In this document: positions 5,960-47,491 of the stretch, one piece after another | How the letters are laid out: every line of letters begins with the position of its first letter | Position numbering within the stretch: the first letter of the stretch is position 1 | NCBI RefSeq assembly: GCF_011045215.1 | Contig: NZ_CP049201.1 | Source: Escherichia coli | GTDB taxonomy: Bacteria; Pseudomonadota; Gammaproteobacteria; Enterobacterales; Enterobacteriaceae | Strand: one strand, 5' to 3' | DNA: 64,000 nucleotides | The notes under the pieces: model-generated | Seen by the model: only the letters and a program-made list of their open reading frames with translations | The model's database searches: none | Told to the model about the DNA's origin: nothing | Translations under genes and position numbers: made by a program

Positions 5960-6036
<77 letters not shown>

Positions 6037-7342: not shown

Positions 7343-7580
7343 TGTGATATTCTGTATGCCGTTTTTACGGATATGACAGGGTGAGGGATAACCTCACATC
7401 CTGATTATTGACTAAGTGCGCGTTGTTCATGCCGGATGCGGCGTGAACGCCTTATCCAGCCTACAAATCATGCAAATCCAAAATATTGCAGGAGTTATGT
7501 AGGCCTGATAAGCGTAGCGCATCAGGCATTTATGCGTTTAGGGTGAGGGATAACCTCGCCCTTTTTAATTCTGAGGTGCT
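7343..7580. repeat. REP/BIME-like palindromic cluster between mltA and tcdA
   Basis: gccggatgcggcgtgaacgccttatccagcctaca and aggcctgataagcgtagcgcatcaggc REP-type palindromes; small hairpin gggtgagggataacctc present twice (7379-7397, 7541-7561). Confidence 0.6.
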
Positions 7581-10521: not shown

Positions 10522-11230
10522 AATAAATATCCTCCGGCATAGCCGGAGGTTTTTCAAATGCGCCTATAAGGCTCTCTTACCAGCCGCGCCCTAACAGGCG
10601 CACACGATCTGACATTTGCATCCAACTTCGTTACTTACGGCCCGTAAACGGGCTGCCCGGATAGGGAATCGATAACTGCTCTCCCATTTCATCCTCTTCA
10701 AGCTGGTGCTTTATGTAATCCTGTATCTTCGCCGTGTTCTTACCCACCGTATCGACGTAGTACCCTCTGCACCAGAACTCCCTGTTCCTGTATTTGAATT
10801 TCAAATCCCCAAACTGCTCATAAAGCATCAGACTGCTTTTCCCTTTCAGATATCCCATAAAGCCGGATACGCTCATTTTGGGCGGGATCTCCACAAGCAT
10901 ATGGATATGATCTGCACAGCATTCAGCTTCAAGAATCCGTACGCTTTTCCACTCACACAGCTTTCTCAAAATACTGCCTATTGCTCTACGCTTCTCTCTG
11001 TAGAACACTTGTCTTCGGTATTTTGGCGCAAAAACTATGTGATATTTACAGTTCCATCGGGTGTGCGCTAAGCTCTTTTCGTTCCCCATTGGGACCCCCT
11101 TTTGATTTCTTGTTTGACACTTGCAGTTGCCAGACCGCAAGGTGTTTTAACAAATCAAAAGGGGTTTTAATAACTGGCTCAAAGCTGAAAGCTTTCCGGA
11201 ACCCCCAGCCTAGCTGGGGGTTTTCTGTGC
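10522..11230 (-). mobile_element. IS200 (IS200/IS605 family) insertion sequence, about 0.7 kb; ends approximate
   Basis: Contains a 152-aa Y1 (HuH) transposase near-identical to Salmonella IS200 TnpA; subterminal hairpins at 10531-10549 and 11200-11222; no terminal inverted repeats expected for this family. Confidence 0.85.
10631..11089 (-). CDS. tnpA: IS200 transposase TnpA (152 aa)
   Basis: MGNEKSLAHTRWNCKYHIVFAPKYRRQ...HIHML...GSPFTGRK; track ORF is extended 17 codons upstream of the likely start. Confidence 0.93.
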   Translation of the reverse strand: MGNEKSLAHTRWNCKYHIVFAPKYRRQVFYREKRRAIGSILRKLCEWKSVRILEAECCADHIHMLVEIPPKMSVSGFMGYLKGKSSLMLYEQFGDLKFKYRNREFWCRGYYVDTVGKNTAKIQDYIKHQLEEDEMGEQLSIPYPGSPFTGRK

Positions 11231-11232
11231 AC

Positions 11233-11438
11233 AAAAAAAAGCACCGCAATTAGGCGGTGCTACATTAATCACTATGGACAGACAGGGTAAATGTACAGGA
11301 AGTGAAAAAAGGTAGCTTTGCTACCATGGTCTGAATCGCAGACCAATTGCAAACACAACAACACAACATCACAACCGTAAGCCAAAAGTTCACCAGAACA
11401 CGCATTCCGATAAAACTTTTCGTTCCGGCTCAGGAAGT
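11233..11438 (-). ncRNA. gcvB: GcvB small regulatory RNA
   Basis: Reverse complement matches recalled GcvB sequence (ACTTCCTGAGCCGGAACGAAAAGTTTTATCGGAATGCGTGTTCTGGTGAACTTTTGGCTTACGG...) ending in terminator GCACCGCCTAATTGCGGTGC + U8; divergent from gcvA. Confidence 0.93.
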
Positions 11439-23190: not shown

Positions 23191-24558
23191 TTAATCGCAG
23201 GCAACGATCTTCATTGCCAGGCCGCCGCGAGAGGTTTCGCGGTACTTGGCGTTCATATCTTTACCTGTTTCGTACATGGTTTCGATAACTTTATCGAGGC
23301 AGACGCGCGGCTCGCTGGTACGGCGCAGCGCCATACGTGCGGCGTTCACCGCTTTTACTGCCGCAATGGCGTTACGCTCGATGCATGGCACCTGGACCTG
23401 TCCGGCGACCGGGTCACACGTCAGACCGAGGTTGTGCTCCATGGCGATTTCCGCCGCGATGCACACCTGCGCCGGGCTTGCGCCTAATAGTTCTGCCAGA
23501 CCAGCCGCCGCCATTGAGCACGCCACGCCAACTTCACCCTGGCAACCCACTTCAGCACCAGAAATCGACGCGTTCATCTTATAAAGAGAACCAATGGCGC
23601 TGGCTACCAGCAGGTAACGAGCCAGTGAGTTAGCGTTCACTTCGCGGATAAACTTATCGTAGTACGCCAGCACAGCCGGGATAATCCCGCACGCACCGTT
23701 AGTCGGCGCAGTCACCACGCGACCGCCAGCGGCGTTCTCTTCGTTCACTGCCAGTGCAAACATGTTGATCCAGTCAACAACCGCCATCGGGTCAGTGGTG
23801 GTTTTATCCTGGCTGACCAGCATCCGGCGTAGTGCCGCAGCACGGCGTGGTACGCGCAGTTTGCCAGGCAACACGCCTTCGGTAGAAATACCGCGCTCAA
23901 TACCGCCGCGCATGACTTCCCAGACGTTCGCCAGGTGCTGTTCCAGCTCTTCTTTGCTGTGCAGCGCCAGCTCGTTTTTCATCATCAGGCCAGAGAGTGA
24001 CAGCCCGGTTTCCTGACAATGTTTTTGCAGATCAGCTGCTGAACTGTACGGATAAGGAACTTCAACCGGTGCGCTATCCTGCTGGCCAAAATGCTCTTCA
24101 TCAACGATAAAGCCACCGCCAATAGAGTAGTAAGTCTGACTGTAAACGACTTTATCACCCGCCAGCGCGGTAATGCGCATACCGTTTTCATGCAGAGAAA
24201 GGTTGTCGGCATGGAAGTTCATGCACTGATCAACCGGGAACTCCACTTCATGCTGACCGTTTGCCAGCATCAGGCGACCATGAGTATTCACATCCTGAAT
24301 AAAACCAGGGATGGAATCGATATCCACGGTATCCGGCAGGTTACCCGCCAGGCCCATAATAATGGCGATATCAGTGTGGTGGCCTTTACCAGTCAGAGAG
24401 AGCGAGCCGTACACGTCAACCACCACGCGGGTCACGTCTTTAAGCAGGTTACGGGCAATCAGATCGTCGGTAAATTGTTTACCCGCTTTCATTGGTCCAA
24501 CGGTATGAGAACTGGAAGGGCCAATGCCGATTTTGAAAATATCGAATACGCTAATCAT
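23191..24558 (-). CDS. sdaB: L-serine dehydratase 2 SdaB (455 aa)
   Basis: 455-aa ORF; Fe-S L-serine dehydratase sequence; synteny with sdaC. Confidence 0.95.
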   Translation of the reverse strand: MISVFDIFKIGIGPSSSHTVGPMKAGKQFTDDLIARNLLKDVTRVVVDVYGSLSLTGKGHHTDIAIIMGLAGNLPDTVDIDSIPGFIQDVNTHGRLMLANGQHEVEFPVDQCMNFHADNLSLHENGMRITALAGDKVVYSQTYYSIGGGFIVDEEHFGQQDSAPVEVPYPYSSAADLQKHCQETGLSLSGLMMKNELALHSKEELEQHLANVWEVMRGGIERGISTEGVLPGKLRVPRRAAALRRMLVSQDKTTTDPMAVVDWINMFALAVNEENAAGGRVVTAPTNGACGIIPAVLAYYDKFIREVNANSLARYLLVASAIGSLYKMNASISGAEVGCQGEVGVACSMAAAGLAELLGASPAQVCIAAEIAMEHNLGLTCDPVAGQVQVPCIERNAIAAVKAVNAARMALRRTSEPRVCLDKVIETMYETGKDMNAKYRETSRGGLAMKIVACD

Positions 24559-24615
24559 AGGAAATACATCGCGTTAAAACGGAGGAAGCGCCGCCCGAAA
24601 GCGGCGCGAAAGGAC

Positions 24616-25905
24616 TTAGCTGAACAGAGAGTAGAAGATTGCGGAGATTGCAATCAGACCCATCACGACAACGAATACGTTGCTGATGTGACCGCTGTAC
24701 TTACGCATTGCCGGTACTTTCTGAATTGCGTACATCGGCATCAGGAACAGGATCATCGCGATGATTGGGCCGCCCAGGGTTTCAATCATACCCAGGATGC
24801 TCGGGTTCAGGGTGGCAACAATCCAGGTCGTTACCAGCATGAACAGCGCAGTGATACGGTTCAGCTTGTTGATTTCGATAGACTTACCTTTACCACGCAG
24901 AGATTTAATCACCATACCGTTGAAGCCTTCACGTGCGCCCAGGTAGTGGCCGAGGAAGGATTTGGTGATAGCGATAATCGCGATAATCGGAGCCATCCAC
25001 GCGATAACCGGTGCGTTAAAGTGGTTAGCCAGGTAAGACAGAATCGAGATGTTCTGCTCTTTAGCCGCCGCCAGGTCTGCCGGAGTCAGGCTCAGTACGC
25101 AGCTGAAGACGAAGAACATTACGGTCAGCACCATCATGATGTGTGCGAATGCCAGGATCTTCGAGCATTTCTGTTCTGCCATATCGCCGTACTCTTCACG
25201 CTTCGCAACGGCGAAAGAAGAGATGATCGGAGAGTGGTTGAACGAGAACACCATTACCGGAATTGCCAGCCACAGGGTCATCCACAGACCGTTTCCGGTT
25301 GCAGATGCAGTGTCCAGAGACAGCGTTTCCAGTGCTGCGCCGTTCCACTGCGGGATCAGGTACAGAGCCAGCAGCATCAGTACGCCAACAAACGGGAATA
25401 CCAGAATACTCATCGCTTTAACGATCATCTGTTCACCAAAGCGAACGATGGTCATCATACCCACGATCAGGATCAGCGACAGAATCGCACGCGGCGGTGG
25501 TGTCATACCCAGCTGGTGAGACATGAAGCTTTCAACTGTATTGGTGATTGCCACGCTATAAACCAGCAGGATCGGGTAGATAGCGAAGAAGTAGAGCAGG
25601 GTAATCAGTTTACCTGCGCCAATACCAAAGTGTTCTTCTACAACCTCGGTGATGTCTTCGCCCGGGTTTTTACCAGACAGTACGAAGCGAGTCAGGCCGC
25701 GGTGAGCAAAAAACGTCATCGGGAACGCAAGGATAGCCATGATGATCAGCGGGATCATACCGCCAACACCGGCGTTGATTGGCAGGAACAGCACGCCCGC
25801 GCCGATTGCCGTGCCGTAAAGGCCCAGCATCCACATGGTGTCTGTCTTGCGCCAGGCACTACGAGAGTCTTTCGACGCAATCGTGCTGGTTTGAGTCGTT
25901 TCCAT
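24616..25905 (-). CDS. sdaC: Serine:H+ symporter SdaC (429 aa)
   Basis: 429-aa polytopic membrane ORF; synteny. Confidence 0.95.
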
Positions 25906-26420
25906 CTATTTCTCCTGGAGGAATGCAAATAATTCAGCTTTTAGCCAGTTCAGCCCGGGAAGGTGCCTGACCGTAAAAATGAAATCTGTCTATCGGCGAT
26001 GGCTTAATCATTTACCGCCGTAATAATTTGAGGGCGGAAAGATACACACAAGTTATGTATCTATCAGTGATCTTGATCCCAAATACAATAATCTACTTGT
26101 AAGATAGATTATCCCAACGCTTTACTCTGTAAATCAAAAGTAAAAGAGAATTTAAGGGCAATATTTGCCCATTAAACGACATCTGACTTCTTCCGGGGCG
26201 CGCAATATATGTAGGTTGAACTAAAAAAATCAATACTTTTAGTTAATCATGGCGATAATTTCTTTTTCATAGCGATAAAATACGGTTTATGAAAATAGGG
26301 AAACGTTTGCGTTGCAACATAAATTGTATGACATATTAACTGTGATGATATTTGTCGCGTGAGGGTGATAAGAAACATTCATATAACAAATGAAATGAGT
26401 TGATGAGTAAGTGACCAAAA
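25906..26420. promoter_or_regulatory. Long AT-rich sdaCB upstream/leader region
   Basis: About 0.5 kb of AT-rich non-coding sequence with no ORF of 60 aa or more; position only. Confidence 0.4.
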
Positions 26421-29611: not shown

Positions 29612-29976
29612 CGACAGGGAGTCAGACAACGAAGTGAACATCAGGATGATGACACTTCTGAAGGACACACCAGGATGGTGTTTCAGGGAAAGGCTTCTGG
29701 ATGAAGCGAAGAGGATGACGCAGGACGCGTTAAAGGACACCTCCAGGATGGAGAATGAGAACCGGTCAGGATGATTCGGTGGGTCAGGAAGGCCAGGGAC
29801 ACTTCAGGATGAAGTATCACATCGGGGTGGTGTGAGCAGGAAGCAATAGTTCAGGATGAACGATTGGCCGCAAGGCCAGAGGAAAAGTTGTCAAGGATGA
29901 GCAGGGAGCAACAAATGTAGCTGGAATGCTGCGAAACGAACCGGGAGCACTGTGAATACAGTGCTCCCTTTTTTTA
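29612..29976 (+). ncRNA. csrB: CsrB, CsrA-sequestering small RNA
   Basis: Starts GTCGACAGGGAGTCAGACAACGAAGTGAACATCAGGATG; many repeated CAGGATG/AGGA motifs; ends with hairpin GGGAGCACTGTGAATACAGTGCTCCC + T8. Confidence 0.93.
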
Positions 29977-30020
29977 TTCCTGCTATCCTTCGCGGCAGTT
30001 TTTCTTATTGAGGTTGCTTT

Positions 30021-31599: not shown

Positions 31600-31651
31600 T
31601 ATGTTCAGCGAGCGGTAAATGCCGTTTTAGCGGTGCTGAATCGAATCTTTT

Positions 31652-31708
31652 CAGGCAAATGCCAGTAAAAACTGCTTCATAGCGCGGATTTTTACTGGCG
31701 TTTGCCTG
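31652..31708. repeat. 20-bp inverted repeat (long stem-loop) downstream of yqcA
   Basis: caggcaaatgccagtaaaaa ... tttttactggcgtttgcctg, 17-nt loop, one G-U position; no adjacent U-tract. Confidence 0.5.
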
Positions 31709-32033
31709 GAGTCAAGCGATCCATTTCATACTCTTCTTTATTTCTTCGTTTTAACCCTTCCTTTCTTGTTCTTGTTTTCATTTCCGTGAAGTGGATTCCA
31801 CCGTCCAGGGCTAATGCCAAAATCGGGCCTCATTGAACGCATTAATGTTGTGTTGTTGCACGGTGAGCCGCTATGGCGCGCTTTTTATACTGCTATTACC
31901 AGATATTAACACGCGCCGTATTCGGCGAACGACCTATAAAAACGGCAAAAAACACCCTACGTCACCTCTGATTTCCTGGCGATGTCGCAGTCCAGAGTGA
32001 GCGTGGCTAACGCGAATTTTCAGGAGTGCAACA

Positions 32034-33386
32034 ATGAGTTCTTTAAGTCAGGCTGCGAGCAGTGTGGAAAAACGCACGAATGCTCGTTACTGGATAGTGG
32101 TGATGTTGTTTATCGTCACATCCTTCAACTACGGCGACCGCGCTACGCTTTCTATTGCCGGTTCGGAAATGGCCAAAGATATCGGCCTTGATCCCGTGGG
32201 AATGGGCTATGTGTTCTCTGCCTTCTCATGGGCTTATGTTATCGGGCAGATCCCTGGTGGTTGGTTGCTGGATCGTTTTGGTTCAAAACGCGTCTACTTC
32301 TGGTCGATCTTTATCTGGTCGATGTTTACCTTGCTGCAAGGCTTCGTCGATATCTTTAGTGGATTCGGCATTATCGTTGCCCTGTTTACGCTGCGCTTCC
32401 TGGTCGGGCTTGCTGAAGCGCCATCTTTCCCCGGCAACAGTCGCATTGTTGCGGCCTGGTTTCCGGCGCAGGAAAGGGGAACGGCGGTGTCGATTTTTAA
32501 CTCCGCTCAATACTTCGCAACGGTGATCTTCGCGCCGATTATGGGCTGGCTGACGCATGAAGTGGGTTGGTCACACGTCTTCTTCTTTATGGGCGGTCTG
32601 GGCATTGCCATCAGCTTTATCTGGTTGAAAGTCATCCACGAGCCAAATCAACATCCGGGGGTAAATCAGAAAGAGCTGGAGTACATCGCTGCGGGTGGCG
32701 CGCTGATCAATATGGATCAGCAAAACACCAAAGTTAAAGTGCCGTTCAGCGTGAAGTGGGGGCAGATCAAACAACTGCTCGGGTCACGGATGATGATCGG
32801 CGTTTATATCGGTCAGTACTGTATCAACGCCCTGACTTACTTTTTCATTACCTGGTTTCCGGTTTATCTGGTGCAGGCGCGTGGGATGTCGATTCTGAAA
32901 GCGGGCTTTGTGGCTTCCGTTCCGGCGGTTTGCGGTTTTATCGGCGGTGTGCTGGGTGGGATTATTTCCGACTGGCTGATGCGCCGCACGGGATCGCTGA
33001 ACATTGCGCGTAAAACACCGATCGTAATGGGCATGTTGCTGTCGATGGTGATGGTGTTCTGCAACTACGTCAACGTTGAGTGGATGATCATCGGCTTTAT
33101 GGCGCTGGCCTTCTTCGGTAAGGGCATTGGGGCGCTGGGTTGGGCAGTAATGGCAGATACCGCGCCAAAAGAGATCAGCGGTCTTTCCGGTGGCCTGTTC
33201 AACATGTTCGGTAACATTTCTGGCATCGTCACGCCAATCGCAATTGGTTATATCGTTGGCACGACTGGCTCCTTTAATGGGGCGCTGATTTATGTTGGTG
33301 TTCATGCCTTAATCGCGGTACTGAGCTACCTGGTGCTGGTGGGCGATATCAAGCGTATCGAGCTGAAACCTGTCGCGGGGCAATAA
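32034..33386 (+). CDS. gudP: D-glucarate/galactarate MFS permease GudP (450 aa)
   Basis: 450-aa MFS ORF; synteny with gudXD. Confidence 0.93.
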
Positions 33387-33387
33387 G

Positions 33388-34728
33388 ATGACGACACAAT
33401 CCAGTCCTGTTATTACTGATATGAAAGTCATTCCGGTCGCCGGGCACGACAGCATGTTGCTTAATATTGGTGGGGCGCATAACGCATATTTCACTCGCAA
33501 TATTGTGGTACTCACCGATAACGCCGGGCATACCGGCATTGGTGAAGCGCCAGGCGGAGAGGTGATTTATCAGACATTGGTCGATGCTATTCCGATGGTG
33601 CTGGGCCAGGAAGTTGCGCGCCTGAATAAAGTGGTTCAGCAGGTGCATAAAGGTAATCAAGCAGCCGATTTTGATACCTTCGGCAAAGGTGCCTGGACTT
33701 TTGAATTGCGCGTTAATGCCGTAGCGGCGCTGGAAGCCGCCTTGCTTGACCTGTTAGGTAAGGCGCTGAATGTTCCGGTCTGCGAACTGTTAGGGCCAGG
33801 CAAGCAACGCGAGGCTATTACCGTCCTTGGTTATCTGTTTTATATCGGTGATCGGACCAAAACCGATCTTCCTTATCTGGAAAATACGCCGGGCAACCAT
33901 GAGTGGTATCAGTTGCGGCATCAGAAAGCGATGAACAGCGAAGCCGTTGTGCGTCTGGCGGAAGCCTCACAGGATCGCTACGGCTTTAAAGATTTTAAAC
34001 TTAAGGGCGGCGTGTTACCTGGCGAGCAAGAAATCGACACTGTTCGTGCATTGAAGAAACGCTTCCCGGATGCGCGGATTACCGTTGATCCCAACGGTGC
34101 ATGGCTGCTTGATGAAGCCATTTCTCTGTGCAAAGGGCTGAATGATGTTCTTACCTATGCCGAAGATCCATGCGGCGCAGAACAGGGCTTCTCCGGACGT
34201 GAAGTGATGGCGGAGTTTCGGCGGGCGACCGGCTTGCCCGTCGCGACTAATATGATCGCCACCAACTGGCGCGAAATGGGCCATGCGGTGATGCTCAATG
34301 CGGTAGATATTCCACTTGCCGATCCGCACTTCTGGACGCTTTCCGGTGCAGTCCGCGTGGCGCAGCTTTGCGACGACTGGGGGCTGACCTGGGGCTGCCA
34401 TTCCAACAACCATTTCGATATCTCTCTGGCGATGTTTACCCATGTGGGCGCGGCGGCACCGGGTAATCCTACCGCTATCGATACCCACTGGATTTGGCAG
34501 GAGGGCGATTGTCGCCTGACCCAAAATCCGCTGGAGATTAAAAACGGAAAAATTGCCGTTCCTGATGCGCCCGGTCTGGGCGTGGAACTGGACTGGGAAC
34601 AGGTACAAAAGGCACATGAGGCCTATAAACGTCTGCCTGGCGGTGCGCGTAACGACGCAGGCCCGATGCAGTACCTGATTCCCGGCTGGACCTTTGACCG
34701 TAAACGTCCCGTTTTCGGCCGTCATTGA
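33388..34728 (+). CDS. gudX: Glucarate dehydratase-related protein GudX (446 aa, enolase superfamily)
   Basis: 446-aa ORF, paralogous to the following gudD. Confidence 0.92.
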
Positions 34729-34748
34729 TTCTGAAAAAGGACATAAAT

Positions 34749-36089
34749 ATGAGTTCTCAATTTACGACGCCTGTTGTTACTGAAATGCAGGTCATCCCGG
34801 TGGCGGGCCATGACAGTATGCTGATGAATCTGAGTGGTGCACACGCACCGTTCTTCACGCGTAATATTGTGATTATCAAAGATAATTCTGGTCACACTGG
34901 CGTAGGGGAAATTCCCGGCGGCGAGAAAATCCGTAAAACGCTGGAAGATGCGATTCCGCTGGTAGTGGGTAAAACGCTGGGTGAATACAAAAACGTTCTG
35001 ACGCTGGTGCGTAATACTTTTGCCGATCGTGATGCCGGCGGGCGCGGTTTGCAGACATTTGATTTGCGTACCACTATTCATGTAGTTACCGGGATAGAAG
35101 CGGCAATGCTGGATCTGCTGGGGCAGCATCTGGGGGTTAACGTGGCATCGCTGCTGGGCGATGGTCAACAGCGTAGCGAAGTCGAAATGCTCGGTTATCT
35201 GTTCTTCGTCGGTAATCGCAAAGCCACACCTCTGCCGTATCAAAGCCAGCCGGATGACTCATGCGACTGGTATCGCCTGCGTCATGAAGAAGCGATGACG
35301 CCGGATGCGGTGGTGCGCCTGGCGGAAGCGGCGTATGAAAAATATGGCTTCAACGATTTCAAACTGAAAGGCGGTGTACTGGCCGGGGAAGAAGAGGCCG
35401 AGTCTATTGTGGCACTGGCGCAACGCTTCCCGCAGGCGCGTATTACGCTCGATCCTAACGGTGCCTGGTCGCTGAACGAAGCGATTAAAATTGGTAAATA
35501 CCTGAAAGGTTCGCTGGCTTATGCAGAAGATCCGTGTGGTGCGGAGCAAGGTTTCTCCGGGCGTGAAGTGATGGCAGAGTTCCGTCGCGCGACTGGCCTG
35601 CCGACTGCAACCAATATGATCGCTACCGACTGGCGGCAGATGGGCCATACGCTCTCGTTACAATCCGTTGATATCCCGCTGGCGGATCCGCATTTCTGGA
35701 CGATGCAAGGTTCGGTACGTGTGGCGCAAATGTGCCATGAATTTGGCCTGACCTGGGGTTCACACTCTAACAACCACTTCGATATTTCCCTGGCGATGTT
35801 TACCCATGTTGCCGCCGCTGCACCGGGTAAAATTACTGCTATTGATACGCACTGGATTTGGCAGGAAGGCAATCAGCGCCTGACCAAAGAACCGTTTGAG
35901 ATCAAAGGCGGGCTGGTACAGGTGCCAGAAAAACCGGGGCTGGGTGTAGAAATCGATATGGATCAAGTGATGAAAGCCCATGAGCTGTATCAGAAACACG
36001 GGCTTGGCGCGCGTGACGATGCGATGGGAATGCAGTATCTGATTCCTGGCTGGACGTTCGATAACAAGCGCCCGTGCATGGTGCGTTAA
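34749..36089 (+). CDS. gudD: D-glucarate dehydratase GudD (446 aa, enolase superfamily)
   Basis: Track ORF starts at 34725; recognised start [20 protein letters not shown] at 34749. Confidence 0.92.
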
Positions 36090-36215
36090 GACAGAAAACC
36101 AAAACCGGCTCTATCTGGAGCCGGTTTGAGATTGATGCTAAACGCAAAATAGCCTGTTGTGCTATGTATCAGGTCTACATCATTTTTTAATTCATTGAAT
36201 TTAATTGGTTTTGTA

Positions 36216-36246
36216 GGCCGGATAAGGCGTTAACGCCGCATCCGGC
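36216..36246. repeat. REP element between gudD and barA
   Basis: ggccggataaggcgttaacgccgcatccggc, classic REP palindrome. Confidence 0.6.
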
Positions 36247-36320: not shown

Positions 36321-39077
36321 TTACCCGAGAATTTTGCTGGCTTCGCGCGCGACATTATCCATCTCGTCCAACAGTTCCAGCAGCTCCGGCTCCAAATCTT
36401 CTTCTTTAGTACCGCTACGTAGCTGTTGTTCGATCAGTTGGCAGAGATTCTTCATACGCGGCACACCGCTATAGCCGCAACTGCCATGCAGTTTATGAAT
36501 CAAATCAACCAGGCCTTCCGGGTTTTCTCCAACCAGCTGTTCCTCAACTTTGTTGCGAACTTCAGGCAGGAAATCGAGTAACATTTGCAGCATATCGCGC
36601 GCTAAATCGGTTTTTCCTGCTGCCTGGCGTAGTGCCAGTTGCCAGTCGAGGGTCGCATTCGGGTTCACCACAATTTCGTTGACTTCGGGCGTCACGACGC
36701 GAGACGAAATACCGCTGCCAGGCTTGTAGCGCAACAACAAATTATGCAATCGCTCTTCTTCAATCGGTTTCGCCAGATAATCGCTCATCCCTGCGCCAAG
36801 CAGCTTCTCTTTTTGCCCGGCCATTGCATGCGCCGTTACCGCGATAACCGGCGTTTGTTGCTGATGGGGGAGCTGGTGGATGAGCTCGCAGGCCCGAATG
36901 CCATCCATGTCAGGCATTTGAATATCCATTAAGATCAAATCGAACGGCATCTGTTTCGCCCGTTCAACCGCCTGATGTCCGCTATCGCAAAGTTCCACAT
37001 GTTGCACCATATCTTCCAGCAATGCGCCGATAAGTTTCAGGTTAGCGGGGTTGTCATCAACCGCCATGACTGTCATTGCCAGCTTACTTTCATCGGTTAC
37101 AGGCAAAAGCGTGTTTTGTTTGTGATGACAAAATTCCGTCAGGGCAGGCAACAGGCGCGTAGGTGTTAATGGTTTCAGCAGACACGCGCCGATACCATCT
37201 TGCTTGAGTTTTTCAGCATTGACTTGTGCATGGCAAGGAAGTGCCAGCATCAGGAAATCGGTCATCGATACCGCTTTCGCTAATCGCTCATGTTGCATTG
37301 TTAGCGGCTCGCGGAAGGTCACCGCGATGCCTAACAACATCATGTCGTAATGCGCGGGAGGCAGCGCGGAGAACGTTGGGCTATAAACCACTTCCAGCGG
37401 CGTTTCACTTAAAATATCCAGCGTGCATTGCGCTGCTGCGGAGTTTGGTTCGACATAGGCCAGGCGCTTACCTGCGAGACACTGGGTGGATGGCCCTTCG
37501 ATAATAATGTTCGGGTTCAGATCGAGATTAATGTGGAACCAGAAAGTTGAACCGCGATTCGGCTGGCTATGGAACGAAATATCGCCGCCCATTTCATTAA
37601 CCAGTTTTTGTGTAATCACCAGCCCCAGCCCGGTGCCACCATGACGGCGGGAAATACTGGCATCAGCCTGTCGGAAGGCCTGGAATAAGCGCGATTGATC
37701 GCGTTCAGGAATACCAATGCCGGTATCCCGAATCTGCACTTCAATCTGCACTTTGGTATTACTCAGCGCACGTTTTTCTACCAGAATATCAATGTTGCCA
37801 TTCTCGGTGAATTTAATTGCATTCCCCACCAGGTTAGTGATGATTTGCTGTAATCGCAGTGGGTCGCCGATCACGTTATCAGGCACGTCGCTCTTAATAT
37901 TGAGCGTCAGTTCCAGACCTTTATCGTGAGAAGAATGTGCCAGCAGGGTAACGACTTCATCCAGCGTGCTGCGTAGTGGGAATGGAATACTTTCCAGAAT
38001 CAGCTTACCTGCTTCCAGTTTCGAGAAGTCGAGAACATCATTAATAATTGCCAGCAAATTATTTGCCGAACGTTCAATCGTATTTAGGTGATCGCGCTGC
38101 GTTGGTGTTAATTCTGTTTTCAGCGTCAGGCGGGTAAAGCCAATAACACCATTCAGTGGTGTACGCAGCTCGTGTGACATATTTGCCAGAAACTCGGATT
38201 TAATACGTGCCGCTTCCTGGGCGCGCTTTTTCGCCAGATCCAACTCAACGTTCTGAATTTCCATCTGCTCCAGCGTTTCACGCAGATCGGACGTCGCCTG
38301 GTCGATATTGTGCTGCATTTCTTCGTGATAAGCAGCCAGCGACATTGCCATCGAGTTGATACCGTTTTTCAGCATATCCAGCTCGCCGAGCATAAATCCT
38401 TCCACCCGGCTGTCGAGTTGCCCGCGACGGATGCGGTCGACGGTATTCACCATGTTGCGAATCGGACCGGTTACATCGCGCATTAAGCGCCAGCCAAAAA
38501 TAAGCGCAATACCGATACAAAACAGCATCATCACGCTGGAAATAAAGATCTCTTTATATTGCTGCAAGCGAACCGATTTAAGATCCAGCTCAAGCGCAAT
38601 ATATCCCAACATATTTTGACTATTTTTGGCATCGCTACTGGGCGATTCGTCGGGGGAGTAACTCTCAGAAATAATCGGCGTGCGGAGGATCATAATATCG
38701 CCGTCACGAGTGACAGTGAGCTGGCGAGGAAACGGCACGTTGCTGCCGAGCTGCATTGATGAGGGATCAAGATGAAAATTGGAGGTGACAAAGAGTCGGT
38801 TATTTTCATCATAAACCGAAATCGCGCGAACAATATCGGAATGGCGACGATGCAGTACGCTTATTAACTGACCGATAGATTCGCGATTTTGCAGGCTCAT
38901 GCCATATTCAGTAGAAACTGCAAGCGGCTCAATAATGCTGGCACCGGCATCTTCCAGTTGACGCTGCAAGTCGTTATAGCGATGCACGACGAAAAAGATA
39001 CTCAGCAATAAACCAATAAGGACGGTCGGTGCCAGGATCAGAATCATCATGCGTGCGCGCAGGCTGTAGTTGGTCAT
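36321..39077 (-). CDS. barA: Hybrid sensor histidine kinase BarA (918 aa)
   Basis: 918-aa ORF with N-terminal TM segments, HisKA/HATPase region, receiver and HPt domains; synteny. Confidence 0.95.

Positions 39078-46177: not shown

Positions 46178-47491
<1,314 letters not shown>

Follow-up and report, generated by a model that had tools for sequence, protein, structure and literature searches.

Why does Escherichia coli keep, immediately upstream of its D-glucarate dehydratase gene, a second gene of the same length encoding a protein of the same family? The question is raised by gudX and gudD in the window analyzed here (the whole 64,000-nt stretch of contig NZ_CP049201.1 from assembly GCF_011045215.1), which the initial annotation described as adjacent genes for paralogs of 446 amino acids. 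The pair is already known: databases contain the operon as well as the two proteins and their structures, and gudX and gudD belong to the E. coli core genome. As a discovery it matters little, and its residual value lies in GudX, an enzyme-like protein under strong purifying selection. The comparative results presented here narrow the search for what GudX does, as they define an invariant catalytic kit, 13 positions clustered in the capping loops, a near-obligate adjacency to gudD and a natural X/D chimera. Besides, glucarate catabolism is relevant to gut colonization by enterobacteria (PMC3877842, PMC11077982).

We assign a probability of about 0.9 to the reading that gudX and gudD are the second and third genes of a gudP-gudX-gudD operon for D-glucarate and that they are ancient tandem paralogs from the mandelate racemase branch of the enolase superfamily. 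In such a pathway GudP would import glucarate, GudD would dehydrate D-glucarate to 5-dehydro-4-deoxy-D-glucarate with Mg2+ and with Lys207 and the His339-Asp313 dyad as bases, and gar genes located elsewhere in the genome would convert this product further. Carried over from the K-12 enzyme of identical sequence, the established chemistry of GudD begins with Mg2+-assisted removal of the C5 proton, for which Lys207 or His339 is the base, and ends with departure of the 4-OH group.

Organization of the gudPXD operon

The three genes lie on the plus strand between yqcA upstream and the convergent barA gene (36321-39077, minus strand) downstream. The first, gudP (32034-33386), encodes a 450-aa MFS transporter for glucarate/galactarate/glycerate, and its TAA stop codon lies 1 nt ahead of the ATG start codon of gudX (ygcY; 33388-34728, 446 aa), which encodes the glucarate dehydratase-related protein. 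A 20-nt spacer (34729-34748, plus strand), identical in sequence to that of K-12 and containing a Shine-Dalgarno AGGA at 34738-34741, separates gudX from the D-glucarate dehydratase gene gudD (34749-36089, 446 aa), so that the coordinates and lengths given for the pair at 33388-36089 proved exact. The open reading frame listing places the second frame at 34725-36089 (plus strand, 454 aa), beginning at an upstream TTG; we assign the gudD start to the ATG at 34749 because AGGA lies 7 nt upstream of it, the RefSeq start in the best-matching genome coincides with it, and the alignment with PDB 1ec7 covers residues 1-446. The 1-nt gap between gudP and gudX and the 20-nt gap with a ribosome-binding site between gudX and gudD indicate a compact co-transcribed unit.

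Expression of the unit is presumably driven from the 434-nt non-coding gap between yqcA and gudP (31600-32033, plus strand), a presumed activator-dependent promoter/leader of gudPXD. A promoter scan of this 434-nt region found no sigma-70 consensus promoter on the plus strand upstream of gudP, which is compatible with activator dependence, and the equivalent Salmonella promoter, PgudTYD, is CdaR-dependent (PMC11077982).

Between the convergent gudD and barA genes, a 10-bp GC-rich hairpin without assigned strand (36102-36127) begins 13 nt past the gudD stop codon and would terminate gudPXD. The terminator scan called it on the minus strand, where a T-run follows it, and when the stem is read on the plus strand only TTTGAG follows. 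The same intergenic region contains a REP-like palindromic element (36217-36246, plus strand; GCCGGATAAGGCGTTAACGCCGCATCCGGC), of which a second copy with 2 mismatches is located at 7431-7460 on the minus strand, none being expected by chance. This second copy adjoins a match to the ES036/CssrF sRNA at 7464-7506 (plus strand).

Identity of GudP, GudX and GudD

Pairwise BLASTP of GudX against GudD gave 283/448 identities (63%), 78% positives, 592 bits and E = 0, which bears out the extensive identity that had been noted for the two proteins. The enolase C-terminal domain PF13378 was found in both GudX and GudD (173 and 164 bits, respectively); PF02746 was found in GudX, and in GudD the N-domain model fell short of E <= 0.001. 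With these domains and with full-length matches to solved GlucD/GlucDRP structures, both proteins have the two-domain architecture of the mandelate racemase subgroup of the enolase superfamily, in which an N-terminal capping domain (MR_MLE_N) precedes a C-terminal (beta/alpha)7-beta barrel (MR_MLE_C).

The assignment of GudD as glucarate dehydratase was confirmed by TIGR03247, the NCBIfam glucarate dehydratase equivalog with a curated cut-off of 828.7 bits, on which it scored 898.7 bits. GudD also matched PDB 1ec7 over its full length, and it is the same protein as the K-12 enzyme (b2787; PDB 1ec7, 1ec8, 1ec9, 1ecq), in the same operon place beside barA: compared with a K-12 derivative, gudD carries 25 nucleotide differences, all synonymous, and 0 amino acid differences. 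Based on this identity to a characterized enzyme, the product of 34749-36089 is predicted to dehydrate D-glucarate/L-idarate to 5-dehydro-4-deoxy-D-glucarate.

GudX scored 748.4 bits on TIGR03247, under the cut-off, and is thus placed only in the wider GlucD family and not as a glucarate dehydratase. Its naming as gudX held, given that RefSeq uses the same gene name, with the product listed as 'enolase C-terminal domain-like protein' or 'glucarate dehydratase family protein', and that the full-length matches were PDB 4il0 and 4gyp_C, 'Glucarate dehydratase-related protein' (1042 bits). In PDB entry 4gyp, GudX and GudD are both represented among the chains. The K-12 counterpart (GudX/YgcY, b2788, GlucDRP; 4il0, 4gyp chain C) has the same length and position, and between the window and a K-12 derivative gudX shows 37 nucleotide and 3 amino acid differences (A2T, D58E, V164L), none of them at an active-site or clade-discriminating position. 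For gudP, which is annotated as such in RefSeq, PF07690 (MFS_1) and TIGR00893 (536 bits, above the cut-off of 395) were found, with 23 nucleotide and 2 amino acid differences from the K-12 derivative.

The single-copy GlucD proteins of Pseudomonas (PDB 1bqg), Bacillus, Bradyrhizobium and others have the fold and the catalytic residues in common with GudD of the window and are 73-77% identical to it. They differ in having no adjoining X-type paralog, and with Q102, D105 and H111 their loop is of the D type. The L-talarate/galactarate, D-mannonate, D-galactonate and L-rhamnonate dehydratases gave weak matches through the common C-terminal barrel domain (E 1e-6 to 1e-18); on the models of these other acid-sugar dehydratases GudX and GudD scored 24-64 bits against cut-offs of 311-750, and by this measure neither protein belongs to those families.

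Age of the duplication

The long blocks of identical amino acids shared by the two proteins (residues 258-293 and 339-354) could point to a recent duplication, or to ongoing gene conversion homogenizing the copies. Within these blocks, however, synonymous codons match at only 42-62% and nucleotide identity is 77-86%. Over their whole length the genes are 65% identical at the nucleotide level, the longest identical run being 20 nt, and synonymous-codon matching in a sliding window along the gene ranges only from 0.25 to 0.70, which argues that there is no conversion tract between gudX and gudD. Moreover, Nei-Gojobori estimates gave a dN of 0.29 and a saturated dS of ~2.

The same picture emerged from a GudX scan with one genome per species, from which 80 loci were kept and 126 proteins were placed in a neighbor-joining tree. 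In this tree the X clade was monophyletic and sister to all GudD proteins, including the single-copy proteins of Pseudomonas, Bradyrhizobium, Variovorax, Bacillus and Paenibacillus, and GudX and GudD formed separate deep clades with no species-wise pairing. These clades, the dS of ~2 and the 20-nt longest run rule out recent duplication or ongoing conversion, to which we give a vanishingly small probability. Judged by these comparisons, the duplication is old, or was followed by early and rapid divergence, and homogenization is not ongoing.

Conservation of the active site and divergence of the paralogs

To the inspection of catalytic residues that had been proposed for this pair we brought a set of 17 positions (H32, T103, Y150, F152, K205, K207, D235, N237, E260, E266, N289, D313, H339, N341, D366, H368 and R422), which are known or believed, from the structural papers on GlucD, to form its active site, H32 and T103 being the least certain. 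All of them are kept in both proteins of the window (17/17 in GudX), and they are invariant in 46 GudX and 79 GudD sequences, with the exception of one GudD that has Glu at position 103. In the mandelate racemase subgroup, acid/base catalysis falls to a KxK motif, located where strand 2 ends, and to a His-Asp dyad on strands 7 and 6, and the essential Mg2+ is bound by three carboxylate/amide ligands where barrel strands 3, 4 and 5 end. Both proteins have K205-L-K207 and the H339-D313 dyad, invariant in the two clades, as well as D235, E260 and N289, also invariant in the 46 GudX and 79 GudD sequences, which are the Mg2+ ligands of the GlucD structures.

What separates the paralogs is a set of 13 clade-discriminating columns, which read from GudD to GudX are L28I, S29G, R88H, a Gly insertion after 88, Q102W, D105E, I110V, H111N, T114A, D294N, S322A, S338C and G418P, along with a 2-residue deletion at 108-109. 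In GudX numbering the X-clade residues are I27, G28, H87, the inserted G89, W103, E106, V109, N110, A113, N293, A321, C337 and P417, and the deletion removes 2 residues after R108. GudX of the window has 13/13 of these residues and groups inside the monophyletic X clade. Nine of the 13 columns belong to two loops in the N-terminal part of the protein that border H32 and T103, and the segment 97-123 shows higher conservation among GudX sequences (0.97-0.99) than among GudD sequences (0.89-0.90). Capping-domain loops of enolase superfamily members close over the substrate and set specificity, and the clustering of the 13-position signature in loops with this role points to the same chemistry with different binding or lid behavior for GudX. 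GudX is thus a paralog that has been maintained, is equipped for catalysis and is altered in the region that sets specificity.

A change of the same loop was observed in Lucifera butyrica, where a second and apparently independent tandem pair (locus L058, 3584-4951 and 5001-6323) lies inside the GudD clade. Its upstream copy has a 17-residue insertion in this 100s loop together with Q102H and D105N, which suggests recurrent duplication followed by divergence of the 100s loop.

Retention and selection

The description of the pair as a conserved, retained tandem duplicate was upheld both within and beyond the species. The 4.4-kb gudP-gudX-gudD stretch was matched in 5425 of the 5426 complete E. 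coli genomes, and the gudX-gudD pair was found at a coverage of at least 80% in 5403 of them, typical strains being 97-98% identical to the window over the pair and the best 99.7%. The order gudP-gudX-gudD was observed in ~40 loci from Enterobacteriaceae, Erwiniaceae, Pectobacteriaceae, Yersiniaceae, Budviciaceae, Orbaceae and one Pasteurellaceae genome. GudX adjoins GudD in 42/45 assessable loci, while GudD occurs without GudX in 37 loci.

At the sequence level, omega was ~0.02-0.08 for both gudX and gudD (measured against the genes of the window), the median dN(X)/dN(D) ratio over 39 loci was 1.18, and no frameshifts or stops were detected in 46 GudX orthologs. Purifying selection acts equally strongly on gudX and gudD. 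Taken together, the low omega, the conserved gudPXD order and an amino acid change only ~1.2 times faster than that of GudD indicate that GudX is clearly a functional protein.

These data bear directly on the view that GudX is a redundant, decaying copy of GudD, a pseudoenzyme near loss that persists only through its location in the operon. Such a view could draw on the score of GudX under the equivalog cut-off, on a published pathway scheme that needs only GudD (PMC11077982), and on the loss of the pair in rare E. coli strains such as 2452. It is nevertheless very improbable, and the selection data effectively refute it: omega equals that of GudD at Enterobacterales-scale divergence, the orthologs carry intact reading frames with 100% conserved catalytic residues, just 3 amino acid changes go with the 37 nucleotides at which gudX of the window differs from K-12, and the duplicate persists across Enterobacterales, Orbaceae and Pasteurellaceae.

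As separate observations on these genomes, 23 of the 5426 complete E. coli genomes have less than 80% of the gudX-gudD pair, and in strain 2452 (locus L083, 5001-5498) gudX is cut down to its first 498 nt; its remainder and the whole of gudD are deleted, so that barA is directly next. A species representative labelled E. coli SCPM-O-B-8794 (L028) showed a dS of ~0.40 against the window in both gudX and gudD with proteins 99% identical, a divergence far above the 2-3% nucleotide divergence among complete E. coli genomes, and this genome may belong to a cryptic Escherichia lineage.

Possible roles of GudX

The initial annotation had called the in vivo role of GudX less clear than that of GudD, and the score of 748.4 bits, the generic NCBI product name and a pathway scheme that gives the dehydration step to GudD alone (PMC11077982) agree with it. 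Our literature search on the biochemistry of GudX/GlucDRP turned up nothing on GudX function. The activity of GudX on glucarate is said to be low, as reportedly found by Hubbard and colleagues in 1998.

We tentatively prefer, at slightly less than even odds, the reading in which GudX works as a partner subunit of GudD. GudX would be co-expressed with GudD and would join it in a mixed tetramer, adding little glucarate turnover itself. This reading is favored by the co-crystallization of the two proteins in 4gyp, whose title reportedly describes a heterotetramer, and by the co-translation of both from one mRNA. The adjacency to gudD in nearly all assessable loci, with GudD often found alone, points the same way, as does their joint decay in Salmonella Paratyphi A, where gudT, ygcY, gudD and garD were degraded together (PMC11077982). 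Some of the evidence counts against a partner role. Co-crystallization is no proof of a physiological GudX-GudD complex, and the invariant catalytic residues of GudX would be no less expected in an active enzyme than in a structural subunit. Besides, X-clade genes without an adjacent gudD were found in Paludibacterium yongneupense (L030), with garK and gudP as neighbors, and in Halomonas eurihalina (L042), next to a TctA/TctC-like tripartite tricarboxylate-type transporter, and these lone genes suggest that X-type proteins can act alone.

GudX may instead be an independent dehydratase or epimerase for another acid sugar, imported via GudP or another carrier, and kept for its new specificity, an explanation that we regard as possible, with a chance appreciably below one half. 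The invariance of all catalytic residues in 46 GudX sequences is as expected for such an enzyme, and the fixed changes lie in the capping loops and beside catalytic residues (Q102W, D105E, H111N and S338C), in a protein whose 97-123 segment is conserved more tightly than that of GudD and whose score falls under the glucarate dehydratase equivalog cut-off. The lone X-clade genes, the Halomonas one beside a different type of transporter, would also agree with independent activity. On the other hand, GudX is nearly always encoded directly upstream of gudD in a glucarate operon and was co-crystallized with GudD, and the neighborhood, holding only glucarate/galactarate pathway genes, offers no candidate substrate.

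Both the partner subunit and the independent enzyme could be accommodated if GudX forms a separate isofunctional family conserved since the Enterobacterales-Pasteurellales radiation, recognizable by the W103/E106/N110 capping-loop signature, which either modifies GudD in a mixed tetramer or dehydrates another acid sugar. We put this forward as a conjecture somewhat short of an even chance. If it is true, a natural GudX(N)-GudD(C) chimera of Pantoea stewartii would serve as a ready-made domain swap for finding the half of the protein that sets its activity.

Evolution of the gud/gar locus

The chimera occurs in Pantoea stewartii subsp. stewartii (NZ_VZPF01000011.1; locus L032, 5001-6335), in which a single dehydratase gene, a clean X/D chimera, takes the place of the pair in a locus arranged as garD / gudP-chimera-garL-garR-garK / barA. 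Scored at positions diagnostic against Pantoea and Erwinia relatives, it follows GudX as far as residue 286 (57 X versus 2 D up to residue 262) and GudD from residue 294 onward (28 D versus 2 X), and the crossover falls at the end of a long block identical between the paralogs. Unequal recombination of the two tandem genes, with loss of DNA, seems to have produced it.

A wider comparison places the compact operon of E. coli at one end of a series. In Erwiniaceae, Pectobacteriaceae, Yersiniaceae, Budviciaceae and Orbaceae, a divergent garD is followed by gudP-gudX-gudD-garL-garR-garK, with barA beyond wherever the locus reaches that far; in Citrobacter, Enterobacter and relatives only a garK-like gene is left after gudD; and in Escherichia nothing is left between gudD and barA. 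Across these loci (L002-L046 and L080) the glucarate/galactarate cluster beside barA shrinks step by step.

The longer arrangement is relevant to a Tn-seq study of Dickeya solani that listed gudX as a fitness gene on galactarate. The operon of this organism is gudP-gudX-gudD-garL-garR-garK, with garD present, and polar effects on garLRK explain the fitness drop, which says nothing about GudX itself. The possibility that GudX acts on galactarate was therefore dropped.

Other features of the window

A 613-codon open frame at 24091-25932 (plus strand) runs antisense to sdaB (23191-24558, minus strand) and sdaC (24616-25905, minus strand). No family match was found for this frame, which probably results from the scarcity of TTA/CTA/TCA codons in the sense genes and owes its unusual length to spanning two genes.

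Between amiC and mltA a single initiator tRNA-Met gene (5960-6036, minus strand) was observed, where K-12 has three such genes (metZWV). The 701-nt amiC-mltA tRNA stretch aligned in one place at a coverage of at least 80% in 225/5425 E. coli genomes; in the genomes listed, two tRNA-Met genes are annotated within the match, and the best match over the full length extends to 812 bp, not 701. A rare copy number or else a collapsed assembly would explain the single gene.

Small RNA genes in the window include GcvB (11233-11438, minus strand), immediately followed by STnc490 (11099-11222, minus strand), and a full-length CsrB gene (29619-29978, plus strand; 384 bits) ~6.3 kb from barA. The BarA/UvrY system activates csrB. 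Additionally, eno (46193-47491, plus strand), encoding phosphopyruvate hydratase (TIGR01060, 685 bits), lies ~10 kb downstream of gudD and is the founding member of the superfamily that contains gudX and gudD.
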